A DNA stretch of 64,000 bases, taken from sequence record MZ681930.1; one strand, written 5' to 3'. Below, one piece after another: positions 8,154 through 36,806 of the stretch (positions within the stretch are counted from its first letter, which is position 1; each line of letters starts with the position of its first letter). Both the position numbers and the translations under genes were made by a program. The stretch comes from Enterobacteria phage phiC600P9. The notes beneath the pieces are model-generated. The model saw only the letters and a list, made by a program, of their open reading frames with translations, made no database searches and was not told the origin of the DNA.

Positions 8154-8624
8154 TTAATCATGTTTCCACACCCCATCGGTATTTGACCAAAGTCGCTGAT
8201 TATCTGATCCTCGCCACAGCTTTTTGGTCGGAAGATTTTTCTCATACTTCCCATCAATAATAACATCAACATATTTAAGCATTTCTAGTTGTTTAATATC
8301 CTCAAACTTATATCCGGTCCACAACCAAATGCTTTTATTGGGATAAAGATTTTTTACTGTTTGAACAATGCAATGAATCACGTCTCTGTTATCAGGATAA
8401 AGAGGGTCACCTCCGGTTATAGTTAATCCTTCTATATAATCATTATTCAAACATTCAATCAATTGTTCTAATGTTTCACCAGTGAATGGAATACCATTTC
8501 TAGCATTCCATGTTGATTTATTATAACACCCTTCGCATTTATGCAAACACCCTGTAACGAAAAGAACGACCCTGCATCCAGGGCCATTCACAAAATCACA
8601 GGGATAAAATCTATCGTAATTCAT
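8154..8624 (-). CDS. nrdG: Anaerobic ribonucleotide reductase activating protein
   Basis: 156 aa; radical-SAM CxxxCxxC motif (CLHKCEGC); immediately downstream of nrdD with ATGA overlap. Confidence 0.9.
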   Translation of the reverse strand: MNYDRFYPCDFVNGPGCRVVLFVTGCLHKCEGCYNKSTWNARNGIPFTGETLEQLIECLNNDYIEGLTITGGDPLYPDNRDVIHCIVQTVKNLYPNKSIWLWTGYKFEDIKQLEMLKYVDVIIDGKYEKNLPTKKLWRGSDNQRLWSNTDGVWKHD

Positions 8625-10438
8625 TGGTGTTTAACCCTATGCATGATTTCTTTATTTTTGCCGAGATTAAATCCGCGTTCGTTCGGATTTCCAAGATAAC
8701 CGCATGTTCTTCTTATTGTGTTCATCTTTTTAGGATCAGTTTCTCCACAAATAGAACAAACAAATCCGTTTTCAGTAGGAGTCATTTCATGGGTACTTCC
8801 ACATGTAAAACATTTATCTACTGGCATATTAACACCGAAATAATCTAAATGTTGTGCAGCATAATCCCATACAGCCTCAAGACCTTTTAGGTTATTTTTC
8901 ATATCAGGAAGTTCAACATAAGAAATGTGACCACCTGTCGCAATGAAATGATACGGAGCTTCGCGAGAAATCTTTTCAAACGGTGTAATATTTTCTTCTA
9001 CTGAAACGTGGAAACTGTTAGTATACCAGCCTTTATCGGTAACATCTTTTACACTTCCATATTTTTCGGTATCAAGTTTACAGAAGCGATAGCACAGGTT
9101 TTCAGCAGGAGTAGAATACAAACTAAAAGCAAAACCAGTTCTTTCAGTCCACTGCTTAAGACGAGCATTCATTTTAGTCAAAATTTCTTGCCCAATATCA
9201 CGACCGACAAGAATATTCAATTCGTGAATACCAATGTATCCTAAGGACACTGAACTTCTACCGTTTTTAAATAACTCAATTATATCGTCATCAGGTTTAA
9301 GACGAACCCCGAATGCACCTTCTTGATAAAGAATAGGAGCAACAGTCGCTTTAACTCCTTTTAAGGAACTGATTCTACACATCAAAGCTTCAAAACATAA
9401 ATCCATTCGTTCATTGAACAATTCGGCAAATTTCTGTTCATTGAACTGTGTTCCAATATAAGAATCTAACGCAATTCGAGGAAGATTCAGTGTTACAACA
9501 CCAAGATTATTACGTCCATCAAGAATTTCATTACCAGTCGAATCTTTCCATACGCCCAAGAAACTACGACAACCCATTGGAGAAACAGGAATAGATGAAC
9601 CAGTGATAGCTTTATTGTTCTTAGCCGAAATGATGTCAGGATACATTCTTTTGCTTGCACACTCTAGAGCAAGCTGCTTAATATCATAGTTCGGATCGTC
9701 TTTATAAAGATTAACACCTTCTTCAACGAACATAACAAGTTTAGGGAAAATAGGAGTTATCCCGTCACGACCGAGACCTTTAATACGATTTTTCAGAATT
9801 GCTTTCTGAATCATTCGTTCAGTCCAGTCAGTTCCCGTACCAAATGTAATTGTTACAAAAGGCGTTTGCCCGTTTGAACTAAAGAGAGTATTTACTTCAT
9901 ATTCATAAGCTTGAAATGCATCGTATACGTCTTTTTCTGTTTTAGATTGAGCATAATTCAACGCATCGGCGATTTGCCATTTTTCTGCATCTTCAATATG
10001 TTTTGCATAGGTGCGTTTAACATAAGGAGAAAGTACTTTATCTACATTAGCAAAAGTCGTTCCGCCATATTGATGGGAAGCAACTTGCGCAGTAATTTGT
10101 GCCATAATTGCAGTAGCAACGCCAATTGATTTAGGAGTTTCAATCTGTGCATTACCAAGCTTAAATCCGTTCTCAAGCATTCCTTTTAAATCTACTAAAC
10201 AACAATTAGTAAATGGAAGAGCAGGGGAATAATCAATATCATGGAAATGAATAATTCCGCTTTCATGCGCTTTCATAATAAAAGACGGGACCATATTTTT
10301 GGCAATGTGTTTAGACACAATACCAGCCATAAGGTCCCGTTGAGTTGGAAAAACACGAGAATCTTTATTAGCATTCTCGTTTAAAAGGTCTTTATTAGTT
10401 TTATGAATCAATCCTTCAATTTCTTTTTCAATTGTCAT
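8621..10438 (-). CDS. nrdD: Anaerobic ribonucleoside-triphosphate reductase
   Basis: 605 aa uninterrupted; C-terminal glycyl-radical motif RRTCGYLG and Cys-rich zinc ribbon; ATG verified. Confidence 0.95.
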   Translation of the reverse strand: MTIEKEIEGLIHKTNKDLLNENANKDSRVFPTQRDLMAGIVSKHIAKNMVPSFIMKAHESGIIHFHDIDYSPALPFTNCCLVDLKGMLENGFKLGNAQIETPKSIGVATAIMAQITAQVASHQYGGTTFANVDKVLSPYVKRTYAKHIEDAEKWQIADALNYAQSKTEKDVYDAFQAYEYEVNTLFSSNGQTPFVTITFGTGTDWTERMIQKAILKNRIKGLGRDGITPIFPKLVMFVEEGVNLYKDDPNYDIKQLALECASKRMYPDIISAKNNKAITGSSIPVSPMGCRSFLGVWKDSTGNEILDGRNNLGVVTLNLPRIALDSYIGTQFNEQKFAELFNERMDLCFEALMCRISSLKGVKATVAPILYQEGAFGVRLKPDDDIIELFKNGRSSVSLGYIGIHELNILVGRDIGQEILTKMNARLKQWTERTGFAFSLYSTPAENLCYRFCKLDTEKYGSVKDVTDKGWYTNSFHVSVEENITPFEKISREAPYHFIATGGHISYVELPDMKNNLKGLEAVWDYAAQHLDYFGVNMPVDKCFTCGSTHEMTPTENGFVCSICGETDPKKMNTIRRTCGYLGNPNERGFNLGKNKEIMHRVKHQ

Positions 10439-27419: not shown

Positions 27420-27597
27420 CTAAACGAATAGGTTCATGAATGCCATATCCCTGAACAGAAATTTCTGTCGTGGGATAAATTCCATCAATATCGCCCATAT
27501 TCCACGCTTCATTAAATTGCTGTTCGCCTGAATTACTAAACCATTCGGCGAAAGCATTTAGCACATCTTCAGAACCTTCAATAATTATCTTTGCCAT
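27376..27597 (-). CDS. Hypothetical protein
   Basis: Track ORF, 73 aa. Confidence 0.45.
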   Translation of the reverse strand: MAKIIIEGSEDVLNAFAEWFSNSGEQQFNEAWNMGDIDGIYPTTEISVQGYGIHEPIRLVEYDLCTGEEVKYD

Positions 27598-27959
27598 TAC
27601 AAACTCTCGGTAAAGGTACGAGCGATAACGTCGCGCTGCTGTTCCGGAGTCAGAGAGTTAAAGCGAACTGCATAACCGGATACACGGATGGTCAGCTGCG
27701 GATATTTTTCCGGATGCTTAACTGCATCTTCCAGAGTTTCGCGACGCAGAACGTTAACGTTCAGGTGTTGACCACCTTCAATTTTAACTGTAGGCTGTTG
27801 CTCAATTTCAATTTCACGGGCATGCAAACCATAGAAAATTTCTGGGTCTACAAAAGAGTCCTCTTTAAAGGTTTTAGATACAATAATTCGTGCTTGAATA
27901 CCATCTTCAAAATAAATAGTACCTTTATGTGTGCCTTCAAGAATTTGATATGCTTTCAT
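27597..27959 (-). CDS. Autonomous glycyl-radical cofactor (GrcA/YfiD-like, T4 Y06I-like)
   Basis: C-terminal [59 protein letters not shown] carries the glycyl-radical motif RVSGYA; track start 27971 is TTG, ATG 27959 has SD GAGG. Confidence 0.85.
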
Positions 27960-27967
27960 ATAACCTC

Positions 27968-28294
27968 TCAATTAGAAAATAAATTTATCCAAGATTGTTC
28001 TTTAATTAAAAATGGCTCAGAATCATATGCCATTAAACTCTGTGTGATTAGTCCTTTAAAAGGCCCATCAATAAATTCCATGGTAAAATATGGAATTTTA
28101 TTCATTAGCCGTGCATTAGGAGCAGTGCACAAAACTCTGCATCCTTTGAATACGCCTTTTTGTAATTTGTATTGCTTAGGATAAAATTCGCTTAAAATGT
28201 TATTTTTTGCCAAAATTTCAAAATGATTCACCAATTTATTTTTAATAGTTTTTGGTGAAAAATAAAGATATTCGAAAAGCTGAGTGTCTGTCAT
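27968..28294 (-). CDS. Hypothetical protein
   Basis: Track ORF 27968..28348 shortened to an internal ATG next to the upstream stop. Confidence 0.45.
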
Positions 28295-28833
28295 CATTGC
28301 ATTCCGATTACGAAAAACTGTGGACGAGTAATACCACCAATACAACATTTAATATTACAGCAGCAGTGTACAGTGTCAATATGGACACTATAAATCTTAT
28401 CCATATCAGGAGATTTGACAGGCTCATCAATTATATACAAAATTCGCGAAAGCTTTAAACCTCTGAACTTGCTTCCTTTATTACCGATAAAACTGCGCAC
28501 AGAATCAGTAAATAAACGAAAACGTATATCATCATTAGAATAACGCGAAAATTCCTTTTTGATGCTATTTGCAGAAATTTTAGCGTAAGCTGAAGTATTA
28601 GAAAGAACAATAACTGTTCCACCGTCATACAACCAATTAGCGGCAAAATTAGTTACTGCAGTTGATTTACCGGATTGACGTCCACCATCTAGTCGAAGTG
28701 TGCAATACTGCTTAAGTAAGTCTTCAAATGGTGGGATATAATCGTTTTTACAAATTTCTTCTACTCTAGCATCAGAATAGTGTGTAAAAGCATTCATCAG
28801 GGATAGATAAGGACCAGTTAAAAATGTTCTCAT
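28294..28833 (-). CDS. P-loop NTPase-like protein
   Basis: 179 aa; Walker A GGRQSGKST and Walker-B-like LYIIDEP; Cys-rich C-terminus; ATG verified. Confidence 0.5.
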   Translation of the reverse strand: MRTFLTGPYLSLMNAFTHYSDARVEEICKNDYIPPFEDLLKQYCTLRLDGGRQSGKSTAVTNFAANWLYDGGTVIVLSNTSAYAKISANSIKKEFSRYSNDDIRFRLFTDSVRSFIGNKGSKFRGLKLSRILYIIDEPVKSPDMDKIYSVHIDTVHCCCNIKCCIGGITRPQFFVIGMQ

Positions 28834-28972
28834 TTCTTCTCTCTAAGTTTGGGCCATTCCGTGGCGCATGAATTGTCCATTTCTGTATTTACCCATTACC
28901 GCACTTGGGCTCGACCTTATTACAGTTGGCGGGAATCCCTCACAGAATCATGAGGTCCAGGTTGTTCCCATA

Positions 28973-29446
28973 TTATTTGAACGATTTAACGTACTGAATA
29001 GAACCTTTACTATTCACGAAAGCGATTTTACCATTTTTATTATACATGGTAGCAGTACGCTGATAGCCATAAGTTTGCTTACCAGATTGATAACCAACTA
29101 ATGCAAAATTATCTTCACCCATTTTATTCTGTTTAGCGCGAATGCGTTCATGACCATGTGCCATAAGAACCTTAGCATCACCAGTTGCAATGGATCGACG
29201 AGTTTTTTCATCTTCAACTGTATTAACAAAGTCGTCAAATGAATCAAATTTAGCATGAGATTTATTATACAGTTTTCCATCTACTGCATAATTATATCCC
29301 TGTACATCCATCTCAACTTCTGTACCATCATCCAATACAGCAGTGATTTTCTGTCCTTTTTTAAATTTCAAAAGATCAGTAAAAGATTCAGCAATAATTT
29401 GAGAATTAATAGCTGCTTCAGTAATAAATTCTTGATATGTTTTCAT
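28973..29446 (-). CDS. Internal head protein (CTS-bearing; ipIII-locus)
   Basis: 157 aa; N-terminal MKTYQEFITEA capsid-targeting sequence with LxE/IxE protease-site pattern; upstream of e as in T4. Confidence 0.7.
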   Translation of the reverse strand: MKTYQEFITEAAINSQIIAESFTDLLKFKKGQKITAVLDDGTEVEMDVQGYNYAVDGKLYNKSHAKFDSFDDFVNTVEDEKTRRSIATGDAKVLMAHGHERIRAKQNKMGEDNFALVGYQSGKQTYGYQRTATMYNKNGKIAFVNSKGSIQYVKSFK

Positions 29447-29462
29447 GTGTATCCTTTAATTT

Positions 29463-29780
29463 TTATTCTTTAGGGAAGTTTTTAGAATATGCATCATAAA
29501 GCTTATTTCCAATACGGCGGAAAACTCTAGCCGCAAAACGATTTTCTGGGTTTTTAATCATGATTTGCATCATATAAGTACCCGCGTCAGAAAGAGCTTC
29601 TTCATAGTACCCGTTAATTTCTTTAAGAGTCCTACGTTTACCACCAGGACCATCAACAGTGATTTTCCATTTACCTGTAGAAGTGCGACTTGGCGGCTCA
29701 ACTTGTTCAATCCAGATATAACCGCCTTCTACACGTTGTCCTGCAGCAGATTCTGCAATAAATTCTTTATAGGTTTTCAT
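29463..29780 (-). CDS. Internal head protein (CTS-bearing; ipII-locus)
   Basis: 105 aa; N-terminal MKTYKEFIAES; early promoter 38 nt upstream. Confidence 0.7.
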   Translation of the reverse strand: MKTYKEFIAESAAGQRVEGGYIWIEQVEPPSRTSTGKWKITVDGPGGKRRTLKEINGYYEEALSDAGTYMMQIMIKNPENRFAARVFRRIGNKLYDAYSKNFPKE

Positions 29781-29817
29781 GTGTTTCCTTTAAATATTTT
29801 AATTAGTAATTGTGAAT

Positions 29818-29847
29818 ATACTATCACAGTTTTAGGAGAAAGTAAAC
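29818..29847 (-). promoter_or_regulatory. T4-type early promoter
   Basis: Minus-sense GTTTACT, 17 nt, TGTGATAGTAT. Confidence 0.55.
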
Positions 29848-29851
29848 AACT

Positions 29852-30382
<531 letters not shown>

Positions 30383-35403: not shown

Positions 35404-35479
35404 TGGTCGAGGCAGTAGGGATCGAACCTACGACCCAGGACTTAGAAGGTCCTTGCTCTTCCTTCTGAGCTATGCCTCG
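35404..35479 (-). tRNA. tRNA-Arg (anticodon TCT)
   Basis: Hand-folded cloverleaf: acceptor CGAGGCA/TGCCTCG, anticodon loop CTTCTAA, T-loop GGTTCGATCC, encoded CCA. Confidence 0.85.
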
Positions 35480-35483
35480 TATT

Positions 35484-35558
35484 TGGCGGACGTGATAGGA
35501 TTCGAACCTATAACCAATCGCTTAACAGGCGATCGCTCTGCCATTGAGCTACACATCC
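35484..35558 (-). tRNA. tRNA-Asn (anticodon GTT)
   Basis: Acceptor GGATGTG/CACGTCC, anticodon stem ATCGC/GCGAT with loop CTGTTAA, T-loop TTCGAAT, CCA encoded. Confidence 0.8.
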
Positions 35559-35562
35559 AAAT

Positions 35563-35649
35563 TGGTGGGGAGTGATGGAGTCGAACCACCCGAGTCGCAA
35601 TGACAATGGATTTACAGTCCACACCGCTACCTCTACGGGATAACTCCCC
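35563..35649 (-). tRNA. tRNA-Tyr (anticodon GTA), long variable arm
   Basis: 87 nt; acceptor GGGGAGT/ACTCCCC, anticodon loop CTGTAAA, long variable arm, CCA encoded. Confidence 0.8.
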
Positions 35650-35658
35650 AAATTAATT

Positions 35659-35733
35659 TGGTGGCCCTGGGTGGAATTGAACCACCATCTGGCGATTATG
35701 AGTCGCTTGCTTGAACCTTCCAGCTACAGGGCC
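35659..35733 (-). tRNA. tRNA with anticodon CAT (Met or lysidine-modified Ile)
   Basis: Acceptor GGCCCTG/CAGGGCC, anticodon loop CTCATAA, T-loop TTCAATT, CCA encoded. Confidence 0.75.
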
Positions 35734-35734
35734 T

Positions 35735-35810
35735 TGGTGCTGATTGACGGAATCGAACCGCCGACCTTCTCATTACAAGTGAGTTGCTCTACCTACTGAG
35801 CTAAATCAGC
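35735..35810 (-). tRNA. tRNA-Thr (anticodon TGT)
   Basis: Acceptor GCTGATT/AATCAGC, anticodon loop CTTGTAA, T-loop TTCGATT, CCA encoded. Confidence 0.85.
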
Positions 35811-35815
35811 AAAAC

Positions 35816-35905
35816 TGGCGGAGGCGATAGGATTTGAACCTATGAGTCGCCGGAGCGACTGCCGGTTTTCAAGACCGGTGCATTAAACCACTCTGCCACG
35901 CCTCC
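35816..35905 (-). tRNA. tRNA-Ser (anticodon TGA), long variable arm
   Basis: 90 nt; acceptor GGAGGCG/CGCCTCC, anticodon stem CCGGT/ACCGG with loop CTTGAAA, CCA encoded. Confidence 0.85.
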
Positions 35906-35908
35906 AAA

Positions 35909-35916
35909 TATTTATA
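35909..35916 (-). promoter_or_regulatory. Late promoter motif TATAAATA upstream of tRNA-Ser
   Basis: Exact TATAAATA on the minus strand, 4 nt upstream of the tRNA-Ser 5' end and overlapping the segB-like stop. Confidence 0.35.
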
Positions 35917-36562
35917 TATTGCTAATTTGATTTAGAATTCTTTTTGCTTGAGTATGACTTACGCCAATATGCTTAGCATATTTAGATAATTCACCACGCT
36001 TAGAAAAATCATATAATTTAGAAATTTCTATTCTTCTTTTTCTTTCATCCGCAGAAACTTTTGCTTCGTTTGCTTTTGCTATTTTACGTTTAGCTTCTTG
36101 AGAATGATTTTTACCAGCAAAGCCATTCTTCATTAATCCATTTGAAGACCATCCTTTTAATTTTCCGTTAGAATGTGCCTTTTTAACACCCAATGAAATT
36201 AATTCGCGTTGCTGATCTGTCATAGGATAATTATTTATATGGTCCCATCCACCTTCTCCGCCAAGTTTTAAATTATACACATCTGGTCTATTTAAAAACT
36301 CTTCTGTGACAATATTTTTCTCGGCTTCAAGCATAGATTCTTTATCATCAAAATACTCTAATATTTCTTTAGAGAAATTTTCTATACCATACTTGTCTTG
36401 GGCTCTTTTTAATAATTTACCAGAACCCATATATCCATCATCTAAATTTTCGGTAGAATGCACACCAATATAAATTTTATTATTAATTTTATTTGTTATT
36501 TTATAAAGATAAAAATGCATATCAGTCCCTAATAAAGAACTGAGCGTCTCACGACGAGTCAT
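35912..36562 (-). CDS. segB: GIY-YIG homing endonuclease (SegB-like)
   Basis: 216 aa; GIY-YIG motif YLYKITNKINNKIYIGVHS ... GYMGSG; basic C-terminal DNA-binding region; located between the two tRNA subclusters as T4 segB. Confidence 0.85.
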   Translation of the reverse strand: MTRRETLSSLLGTDMHFYLYKITNKINNKIYIGVHSTENLDDGYMGSGKLLKRAQDKYGIENFSKEILEYFDDKESMLEAEKNIVTEEFLNRPDVYNLKLGGEGGWDHINNYPMTDQQRELISLGVKKAHSNGKLKGWSSNGLMKNGFAGKNHSQEAKRKIAKANEAKVSADERKRRIEISKLYDFSKRGELSKYAKHIGVSHTQAKRILNQISNI

Positions 36563-36566
36563 AAAT

Positions 36567-36640
<74 letters not shown>

Positions 36641-36645
36641 AAATT

Positions 36646-36732
36646 TGGTGCGAGAAGTGGGACTCGAACCCACAAGGAAATCATTCCGCAGCATTTTAAG
36701 TGCTGTGCCTTTACCAATTTGACCATTCTCGC
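36646..36732 (-). tRNA. tRNA-Leu (anticodon TAA), long variable arm
   Basis: 87 nt; acceptor GCGAGAA/TTCTCGC, anticodon stem CAGCA/TGCTG with loop CTTAAAA, CCA encoded. Confidence 0.85.
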
Positions 36733-36733
36733 G

Positions 36734-36806
36734 CTGGGAATAAAGGACTCGAACCTTTGCATCCTGGAATCAAAATCCAGTGCCTTACCAACTTGGCTAA
36801 TTCCCA
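36734..36806 (-). tRNA. tRNA-Gln (anticodon TTG)
   Basis: Acceptor TGGGAAT/ATTCCCA, anticodon stem CTGGA/TCCAG with loop TTTTGAT; 3' CCA not encoded. Confidence 0.8.

Follow-up and report, generated by a model that had tools for sequence, protein, structure and literature searches.

Host-identical 3′ half in the vs.6 gene of phage phiC600P9 suggests repeated gene conversion from the host grcA gene

How does a small gene of a lytic T4-type phage come to end in a sequence that matches a protein of its host residue for residue? This question is raised by an open reading frame of Enterobacteria phage phiC600P9 (record MZ681930.1), which lies in the stretch of 64,000 nucleotides analysed here and called the window below. 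A preliminary description, made from the sequence alone, had proposed a GrcA/YfiD-type glycyl-radical protein orthologous to T4 Y06I, and had ascribed the near-identity to E. coli GrcA over the last 60 residues or so to recent capture or strong constraint. The reading that we favour, with a probability of about 0.8, is that the gene, vs.6, encodes the known spare part of pyruvate formate-lyase (PFL), and that gene conversion from the host chromosome has repeatedly replaced its host-interacting half. Coordinates are collected in Table 1.

Table 1. Position of vs.6, of its parts and of other features of the window
Feature	Position	Strand	Evidence or remark
vs.6 / Y06I-type CDS, autonomous glycyl radical cofactor (GrcA-like PFL spare part)	27597..27959	-	ORF, Pfam, T4 identity, PDB match
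GAGAGG Shine-Dalgarno-like motif	27964..27969	-	4 nt 5′ of ATG at 27959; read from sequence
Phage-type 5′ half (codons 1-59 and first base of codon 60)	27782..27959	-	AT-rich; anciently diverged GrcA N-terminal homolog
Host-identical tract, 172 bases, equal to E. coli K-12 grcA nt 200-371	27610..27781	-	alignment, longest common run
Tract position 39	27743		synonymous site
Gly95 codon (GrcA Gly102, PflB Gly734)	27675..27677	-	RVSGYA position; alignment to GrcA and PflB 697-759
Phage-specific 3′ end: last base of Thr codon, then GAG AGT TTG TAA	27597..27609	-	4 synonymous differences vs E. coli ACT GAA AGC CTG
ATG of vs.5	27595-27597		overlaps the vs.6 stop as TAATG
nrdG	8154-8624		
nrdD	8621-10438		
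vs.8	28294-28833		
ORF of 157 aa	28973-29446		Pfam DUF7412
ORF of 105 aa	29463-29780		
Lysozyme e	29852-30346		
Cluster of nine tRNA genes	35404-36806	-	Arg, Asn, Tyr, Met, Thr, Ser, Gly, Leu, Gln
tRNA-Tyr region	35560-35652		megablast match to E. coli plasmids, 90.5%

The ORF list and the sequence give a frame of 363 nt and 120 aa on the minus strand, with a TAA stop at 27597-27599. The ATG at 27959 was favoured over a TTG at 27971 because of the GAGAGG motif placed 4 nt upstream, and the same start is also annotated in phiC600P9, T4 and RB69. The phiC600P9 record, identical to the gene at 100% of its nucleotides, annotates the CDS as “autonomous glycyl radical cofactor”, and a close match to the gene was present in 756 phage records. 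Gly_radical (PF01228; E 2.5e-18, 67 bits vs a cutoff of 22.2) makes up the whole domain content of this stand-alone protein of about 14 kDa, which is devoid of the PFL catalytic core. The top PDB match was E. coli GrcA (6owr, E 9e-42), followed by residues 697-759 of PflB (E 5e-26), and BLASTP against E. coli K-12 GrcA (WP_000627807) gave 73 identities over 100 positions. Residues 61-120 align with GrcA 68-127 with zero mismatches; the peptide singled out in the preliminary description corresponds exactly to residues 62-120. The radical glycine, G95, is intact in the motif RVSGYAV, also as described.

Orthology with T4 Y06I was equally borne out, by 98% amino acid identity, by a full-length match to phrog_1209 (PHROG 1209, which holds the T4 vs.6 / Y06I orthologs; E 5.7e-63), and by the gene order vs.7-vs.6-vs.5, common to T4, RB69 and phiC600P9. 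The NCBIfam equivalog TIGR04365 (spare_glycyl) aligned with residues 20-120 and scored 154.9 bits (E 1.2e-45), below the cutoff of 170 bits set for the whole protein, for which E. coli GrcA scores 234; the score is low because the N-terminal half is diverged. A scan for promoters and terminators around vs.6 returned signals no stronger than in shuffled sequence. Neither the gene nor its annotation or biochemical role is new, and for T4 the gene and this role are textbook knowledge.

Some features of the neighbouring region can be recorded here. T4 has denV, ipII and ipIII between vs.8 and the lysozyme gene e, and in phiC600P9 this interval (28834-29851) contains two ORFs only. Both begin with MKTY(Q/K)EFI, resembling the capsid-targeting leader of internal proteins. 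In the interval examined, denV is absent from its T4 position.

At the nucleotide level, the identity with the host gene is confined to one part of vs.6. The tract identical to K-12 grcA covers nt 179-350 of the phage gene; residues 61-116, and with them the whole glycyl-radical motif, fall within it, together with parts of the adjoining codons. Its GC content is 0.50-0.52, vs 0.30-0.36 on either side, and its GC3 is 0.47, close to the 0.45 of the E. coli tract; GC3 is 0.18 in the phage 5′ half vs 0.39 in the E. coli 5′ half. Codon-aligned identity of the 5′ half with E. coli grcA amounts to 40 of 90 nucleotides (~44%). By blastn against E. coli genomes the 5′ half had no match, and gene nt 179-363 alone were found. 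An alignment of profiles by hhalign, made of 44 phage and 68 bacterial N-terminal halves, nevertheless detected a relationship (probability 98.3%, E 2.3e-14, 26% identity, 61 aligned columns). The N-terminal halves are therefore homologous, which makes vs.6 an old, full-length phage homolog of grcA and not a fusion. We concluded that the gene is homologous to grcA over its whole length and that its 3′ half was overwritten from host grcA. Two other origins were ruled out: capture of the whole gene, by the restricted blastn coverage and the low nucleotide identity of the 5′ half, and fusion of an unrelated phage N-terminus to a host fragment, by the hhalign homology.

When the whole 64-kb window was compared by megablast with 5426 E. 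coli genomes, no second chromosomal match was found besides the tract. The sole other match in this collection fell in the tRNA-Tyr region of the nine-tRNA cluster; it was located on plasmids and annotated as tRNA-Tyr. The 172-nt tract being the only host-chromosome-like DNA of the window, screening of phages for therapy should not take it for transduced DNA.

The downstream junction coincides with the start of the next gene. The vs.5 ATG overlaps the vs.6 stop, and a GAGAG motif is found within the vs.6 3′ end, 6 nt upstream of this ATG. The end codons vary with the phage genus (GAG AGT TTG in Tequatrovirus, GAG AGT CTA in Mosigvirus, ACA GAG GCA CTA in Jiaodavirus), and some isolates mix host-like with phage-like states within their last four codons. 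In phage Miro, a ribosome binding site for the downstream gene is annotated inside the corresponding last codons. The last four codons probably stay phage-specific through the translation signals of vs.5 and the end of homology past the stop. The downstream edge of the tract would then be fixed by the loss of homology beyond the stop codon combined with selection on vs.5 translation.

The transfer was recent, and it went from host to phage. Divergence from E. coli K-12 grcA was scored over a core made of the first 57 codons of the tract (171 nt). In this core, phiC600P9 has 1 difference, in the final Thr codon (dS 0.02), RB69 has 1, nonsynonymous (dS 0), and DCP548 has 0 (dS 0); a sister Escherichia species has 3 (dS 0.07), Citrobacter 14 (dS 0.42) and Salmonella 25 (dS 1.24). 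The dS values separating E. coli grcA from its relatives are concordant between the 5′ and 3′ parts of the gene, which means that the host copy descends vertically and was the donor. A phage-to-host transfer was ruled out by this concordance and by the host-like composition of the tract, and pflB or tdcE as donor by an identity to the tract of ~80% or less. Nucleotide alignment with host grcA, which the preliminary description had put forward as a check, thus decides for recent transfer by the dS values of the core. Recent capture stands as far as its date is concerned and fails for the gene as a whole, only the 3′ half being host-identical.

Comparison of phage genera suggests that such a transfer happened more than once. 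Between Tequatrovirus and Mosigvirus, the 5′ half differs at 18-21 of 180 positions (dS 0.47-0.58), vs no fixed difference and a dS of 0.02 in the core (Fisher P 2.5e-5). Most of the Klebsiella-associated Jiaodaviruses sampled have a K. pneumoniae-type tract: JD18, PSE-D1, Nispero, L115 and L188 are 4-8 of 171 positions away from K. pneumoniae grcA, share long identical stretches with it, and have the Klebsiella-type residues L77 and E81; the remaining sampled bacterial alleles are 16-50 sites away from K. pneumoniae grcA. The K. pneumoniae gene was taken from a PLSDB entry of 5.37 Mb named “plasmid unnamed2” (CP125156.1, L182), evidently a chromosome. In another entry, “plasmid 2” of K. aerogenes NCTC10006 (LR134122.1, L183), the frame of grcA is broken by an extra A in an A-run, probably an assembly error. 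A third tract type is carried by Jiaodavirus ATCCa and by the metagenomic locus L187. ATCCa and JD18 differ at 3 of 180 sites in the 5′ half vs 12 of 171 in the tract (P 0.016). No donor of the ATCCa/L187 tract was found among the sampled alleles, the nearest being a Raoultella MAG with 11-12 differences.

Polymorphisms are also shared between phages and host. The core has 8 variant states among 29 E. coli-type alleles, 6 of which recur among 17 Tequatrovirus/Mosigvirus alleles, vs 1.35 expected (hypergeometric P 3e-4 under a uniform-rate model). Two transversions and two-SNP haplotypes are among them (24A+39T in PEC04, 39T+102A in L093). Part of this sharing could reflect parallel mutation at hot sites; the hypergeometric model takes rates to be uniform.

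One of the polymorphic positions deserves a separate mention. At tract position 39, phiC600P9, which was isolated on the K-12 strain C600, has the minority, K-12-type C, and T4 has T, as do BL21 and most E. coli. T4 was long propagated on E. coli B. The match of C39 to K-12 concerns one SNP and may be a coincidence; it fits conversion on a laboratory time scale.

The alternative that survives best is a single recent capture in one lineage, followed by spread to Tequatrovirus, Mosigvirus and relatives through recombination between phages only. Recombination is free among T4-like phages that share a host, and no fixed tract difference separates Tequatrovirus from Mosigvirus, as seen above; moreover, some sublineages diverge gradually from the E. 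coli sequence, which rare input from the host would predict. A single capture does not, however, provide for the K. pneumoniae-type tract of Jiaodavirus, which in JD18 is ~19 differences away from E. coli, nor for the third tract type inside the same genus, nor for the fact that different phages match different E. coli haplotypes, transversions included. Within Mosigvirus itself, DCP548 has 0 differences from E. coli vs 7 in the related KAW3E185 (binomial P 0.016). We regard this alternative as unlikely. Exchange between phages may explain part of the similarity of Tequatrovirus and Mosigvirus. The capture invoked in the preliminary description is in this respect better replaced by a transfer that appears recurrent and specific to the host of each phage genus than by a single event.

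Some observations count against repeated conversion from the host, at least as a continuous process. In a Mosigvirus sublineage comprising p000y, APCEc01 and KAW3E185, the core has 5-7 differences from K-12, 4-6 of them absent from the sampled E. coli alleles. Searched against 5426 E. coli genomes, the KAW3E185 tract reaches 96.5% identity at best, six of its differences being found in none; this result rules out that the tract is a rarer E. coli allele. Its differences are either changes of the phage lineage or the mark of an unsampled donor. At least 4 of them are G/C-to-A/T, which is consistent with decay in an AT-rich genome. Conversion is thus episodic rather than continuous, and several E. 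coli phage lineages are fully diverged, without a recent host tract (Krischvirus Phi1, the L096-L100 group, T5-like phages, jumbo phages).

GrcA-like genes are also widespread outside the T4 group, in the T5-like Tequintavirus (L008, L132-L157), in jumbo phages of 345-357 kb (L114, L116, L117) and in L108-L113 (large contigs among these). Their products share an invariant core of ten residues, and their tracts are strongly diverged and mostly AT-rich; for the tracts tested, the closest bacterial allele is at least 33 core sites away. Given this divergence, no recent host conversion is shown in these phages.

The correspondence with hosts also has its level of resolution. Where phages are labelled as, or were isolated on, Yersinia, Citrobacter, Serratia or Salmonella, their tract is the one usual in the phage genus and not that of the labelled host; hence tracking of the host operates at the level of the main host of the genus. 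A record of another kind is PV654520.1 (H128), Pseudomonas phage vB_PSGBLB0006, of 142 kb and with P. aeruginosa ATCC 9027 as host, which has a Tequatrovirus-type vs.6 and a tract 99.4% identical to E. coli grcA. Its host label, or the record itself, looks doubtful.

T4 Y06I is activated by the PFL-activating enzyme PFL-AE and restores oxygen-cleaved PFL (Wagner et al. 2001, as reported in PMC8683613), and the same source names T4 Y06I and E. coli YfiD, and no others, as biochemically validated spare-part proteins. Given its 98% identity with Y06I, the phiC600P9 protein would be expected to work in the same way. Upon cleavage of host PflB by oxygen at its radical glycine, the host activase PflA would install a radical on Gly95 of the Y06I-type protein; the activated protein would then dock on truncated PflB, where it takes over from the missing C-terminal domain, and fermentative cleavage of pyruvate could go on during infection in low-oxygen habitats.

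It has to be weighed whether the enzyme for which the protein is a spare part is instead NrdD, the anaerobic ribonucleotide reductase of the phage itself. This enzyme is likewise cleaved by oxygen at its glycyl radical, and nrdD and nrdG are both present in the window, as the preliminary description had stated. A role in nucleotide metabolism was speculated by Nolan et al. 2006 (PMC1524935), and Andorfer et al. (PMC8683613) consider spare parts for further glycyl radical enzymes conceivable. Against this, BLASTP of the protein with the NrdD of the window gave E 2.6, a non-significant value, with the radical loop left unaligned, and it is the C-terminal domain of PflB that is matched significantly, the tract being moreover identical to host GrcA. 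Complementation of PFL together with PFL-AE is also what PMC8683613 reports for T4 Y06I. We therefore consider a role towards NrdD very improbable.

Less probable still is an ancient capture of the whole grcA gene, with a 3′ half kept unchanged by selection on the protein, on codon usage or on an RNA element. Protein constraint is certainly very strong, the C-terminal 60 residues being near-invariant in Enterobacteriaceae and in many phages. It does not extend to the nucleotides, however: enterobacterial grcA genes have 14-35 tract differences from E. coli, nearly all synonymous, and 24-32 sites differ in phage lineages whose residues are the same. The phage loci L101-L105 illustrate this point, as their C-terminal residues are the same as in E. 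coli or nearly so, and their 171-nt core is at least 24 sites away from every sampled bacterial allele (30-32 from E. coli over a 183-nt tract). Since these loci keep the residues and yet differ at the nucleotide level, protein constraint is not the explanation. As for codon usage, that of the window predicts 22.8 identical core codons vs 56 observed, and gives a probability of ~1e-29 for the identity of all 57; the tract is also set apart by its GC3 from the rest of the gene. The dS data effectively refute ancient capture followed by selection.

An artefact (host contamination or chimeric assembly) might have produced a stretch of host composition with an exact host match, and its probability is practically nil, as identical junctions occur in ~640 independently sequenced phage genomes, T4, RB69 and IMG/VR contigs included, and as the junctions are in frame, the last codons phage-specific and the variants lineage-specific.

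A scheme of repeated conversion from the host can then be proposed as follows. The 3′ half, which encodes the part of the protein that must fit PflA and PflB, has been replaced by chromosomal grcA DNA of the host. The likely route is homologous gene conversion of the phage gene by host grcA in the course of infection, in which fragments of host DNA would invade the homologous phage tract by means of the T4 recombination system. This last step is assumed by analogy with recombination between T4 and plasmids, which is known. Conversion may be rare at first, become easy once a near-identical tract exists, and be followed by AT-ward decay between events. The direction from host to phage and the recency of the transfer follow from the data; the recombination mechanism, taken from general T4 biology, and any adaptive value of matching the host are inferred.

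On these grounds it appears fairly probable, if less so than the reading favoured above, that the host-contacting half of a strictly lytic T4-type phage protein is in concerted evolution with host grcA via repeated conversion of nt 179-350. If true, sister genera carry E. coli-, K. pneumoniae- or other host-type tracts on an old phage-specific gene, and the tract is a natural and measurable reporter of the flow of DNA from host to phage in lytic infections. If conversion is frequent enough, it would also offer the phage a built-in way to stay compatible with host PflA and PflB. That gene conversion from host chromosome to virulent phage is ongoing is suggested by the host-type tracts, which vary with phage genus, and by the polymorphisms in common with hosts. 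In the literature, which was covered in part and may hold an earlier notice, we found no report of base-for-base identity with the host, or of recurrent conversion, for this gene.

The closest known system is T4 vs.6 itself. Its product (Y06I, NP_049730) has the same length and is identical at 118 of 120 residues, the phiC600P9 protein having Q54 and R73 where T4 has P54 and H73, and the gene likewise lies downstream of vs.7 and is overlapped at its end by vs.5. It is also a mosaic with an E. coli-type 3′ tract. The two tracts differ in their allele, K-12-type with C39 in phiC600P9, of the commoner T39 type with one nonsynonymous change in T4, and the host-like sequence of T4 extends two codons further 3′.

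E. coli GrcA (YfiD, P68066, PDB 6OWR) is, like the phage product, a small autonomous protein with the same radical motif, and its C-terminal 60 residues are identical. It differs by the N-terminal half, to which that of the phage is ~26% identical, being 7 residues shorter and written in AT-rich codons, and by gene context, an operon of the phage in one case and a position between ung and eamB in the other. The C-terminal glycyl-radical domain of PflB (PDB 1H16, 697-759) is the same fold module with the same RVSGYAV loop, and is the piece that the spare part is thought to replace. PflB, in contrast, is an enzyme of 759 aa with catalytic cysteines, and pflB DNA is ~80% identical to the tract.

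With respect to exchange of DNA, the nearest parallel is psbA of cyanophages, in which intragenic recombination between host and phage has reportedly produced mosaic genes. Both cases would concern an auxiliary metabolic gene of a lytic myovirus, with segments exchanged with the host ortholog. Unlike in psbA, the exchange in vs.6 stays within one half of a very small gene, has sharp boundaries and is exact to the base; the tract is host-specific by genus in three sister genera, and the phage that carries it degrades the DNA of its host.
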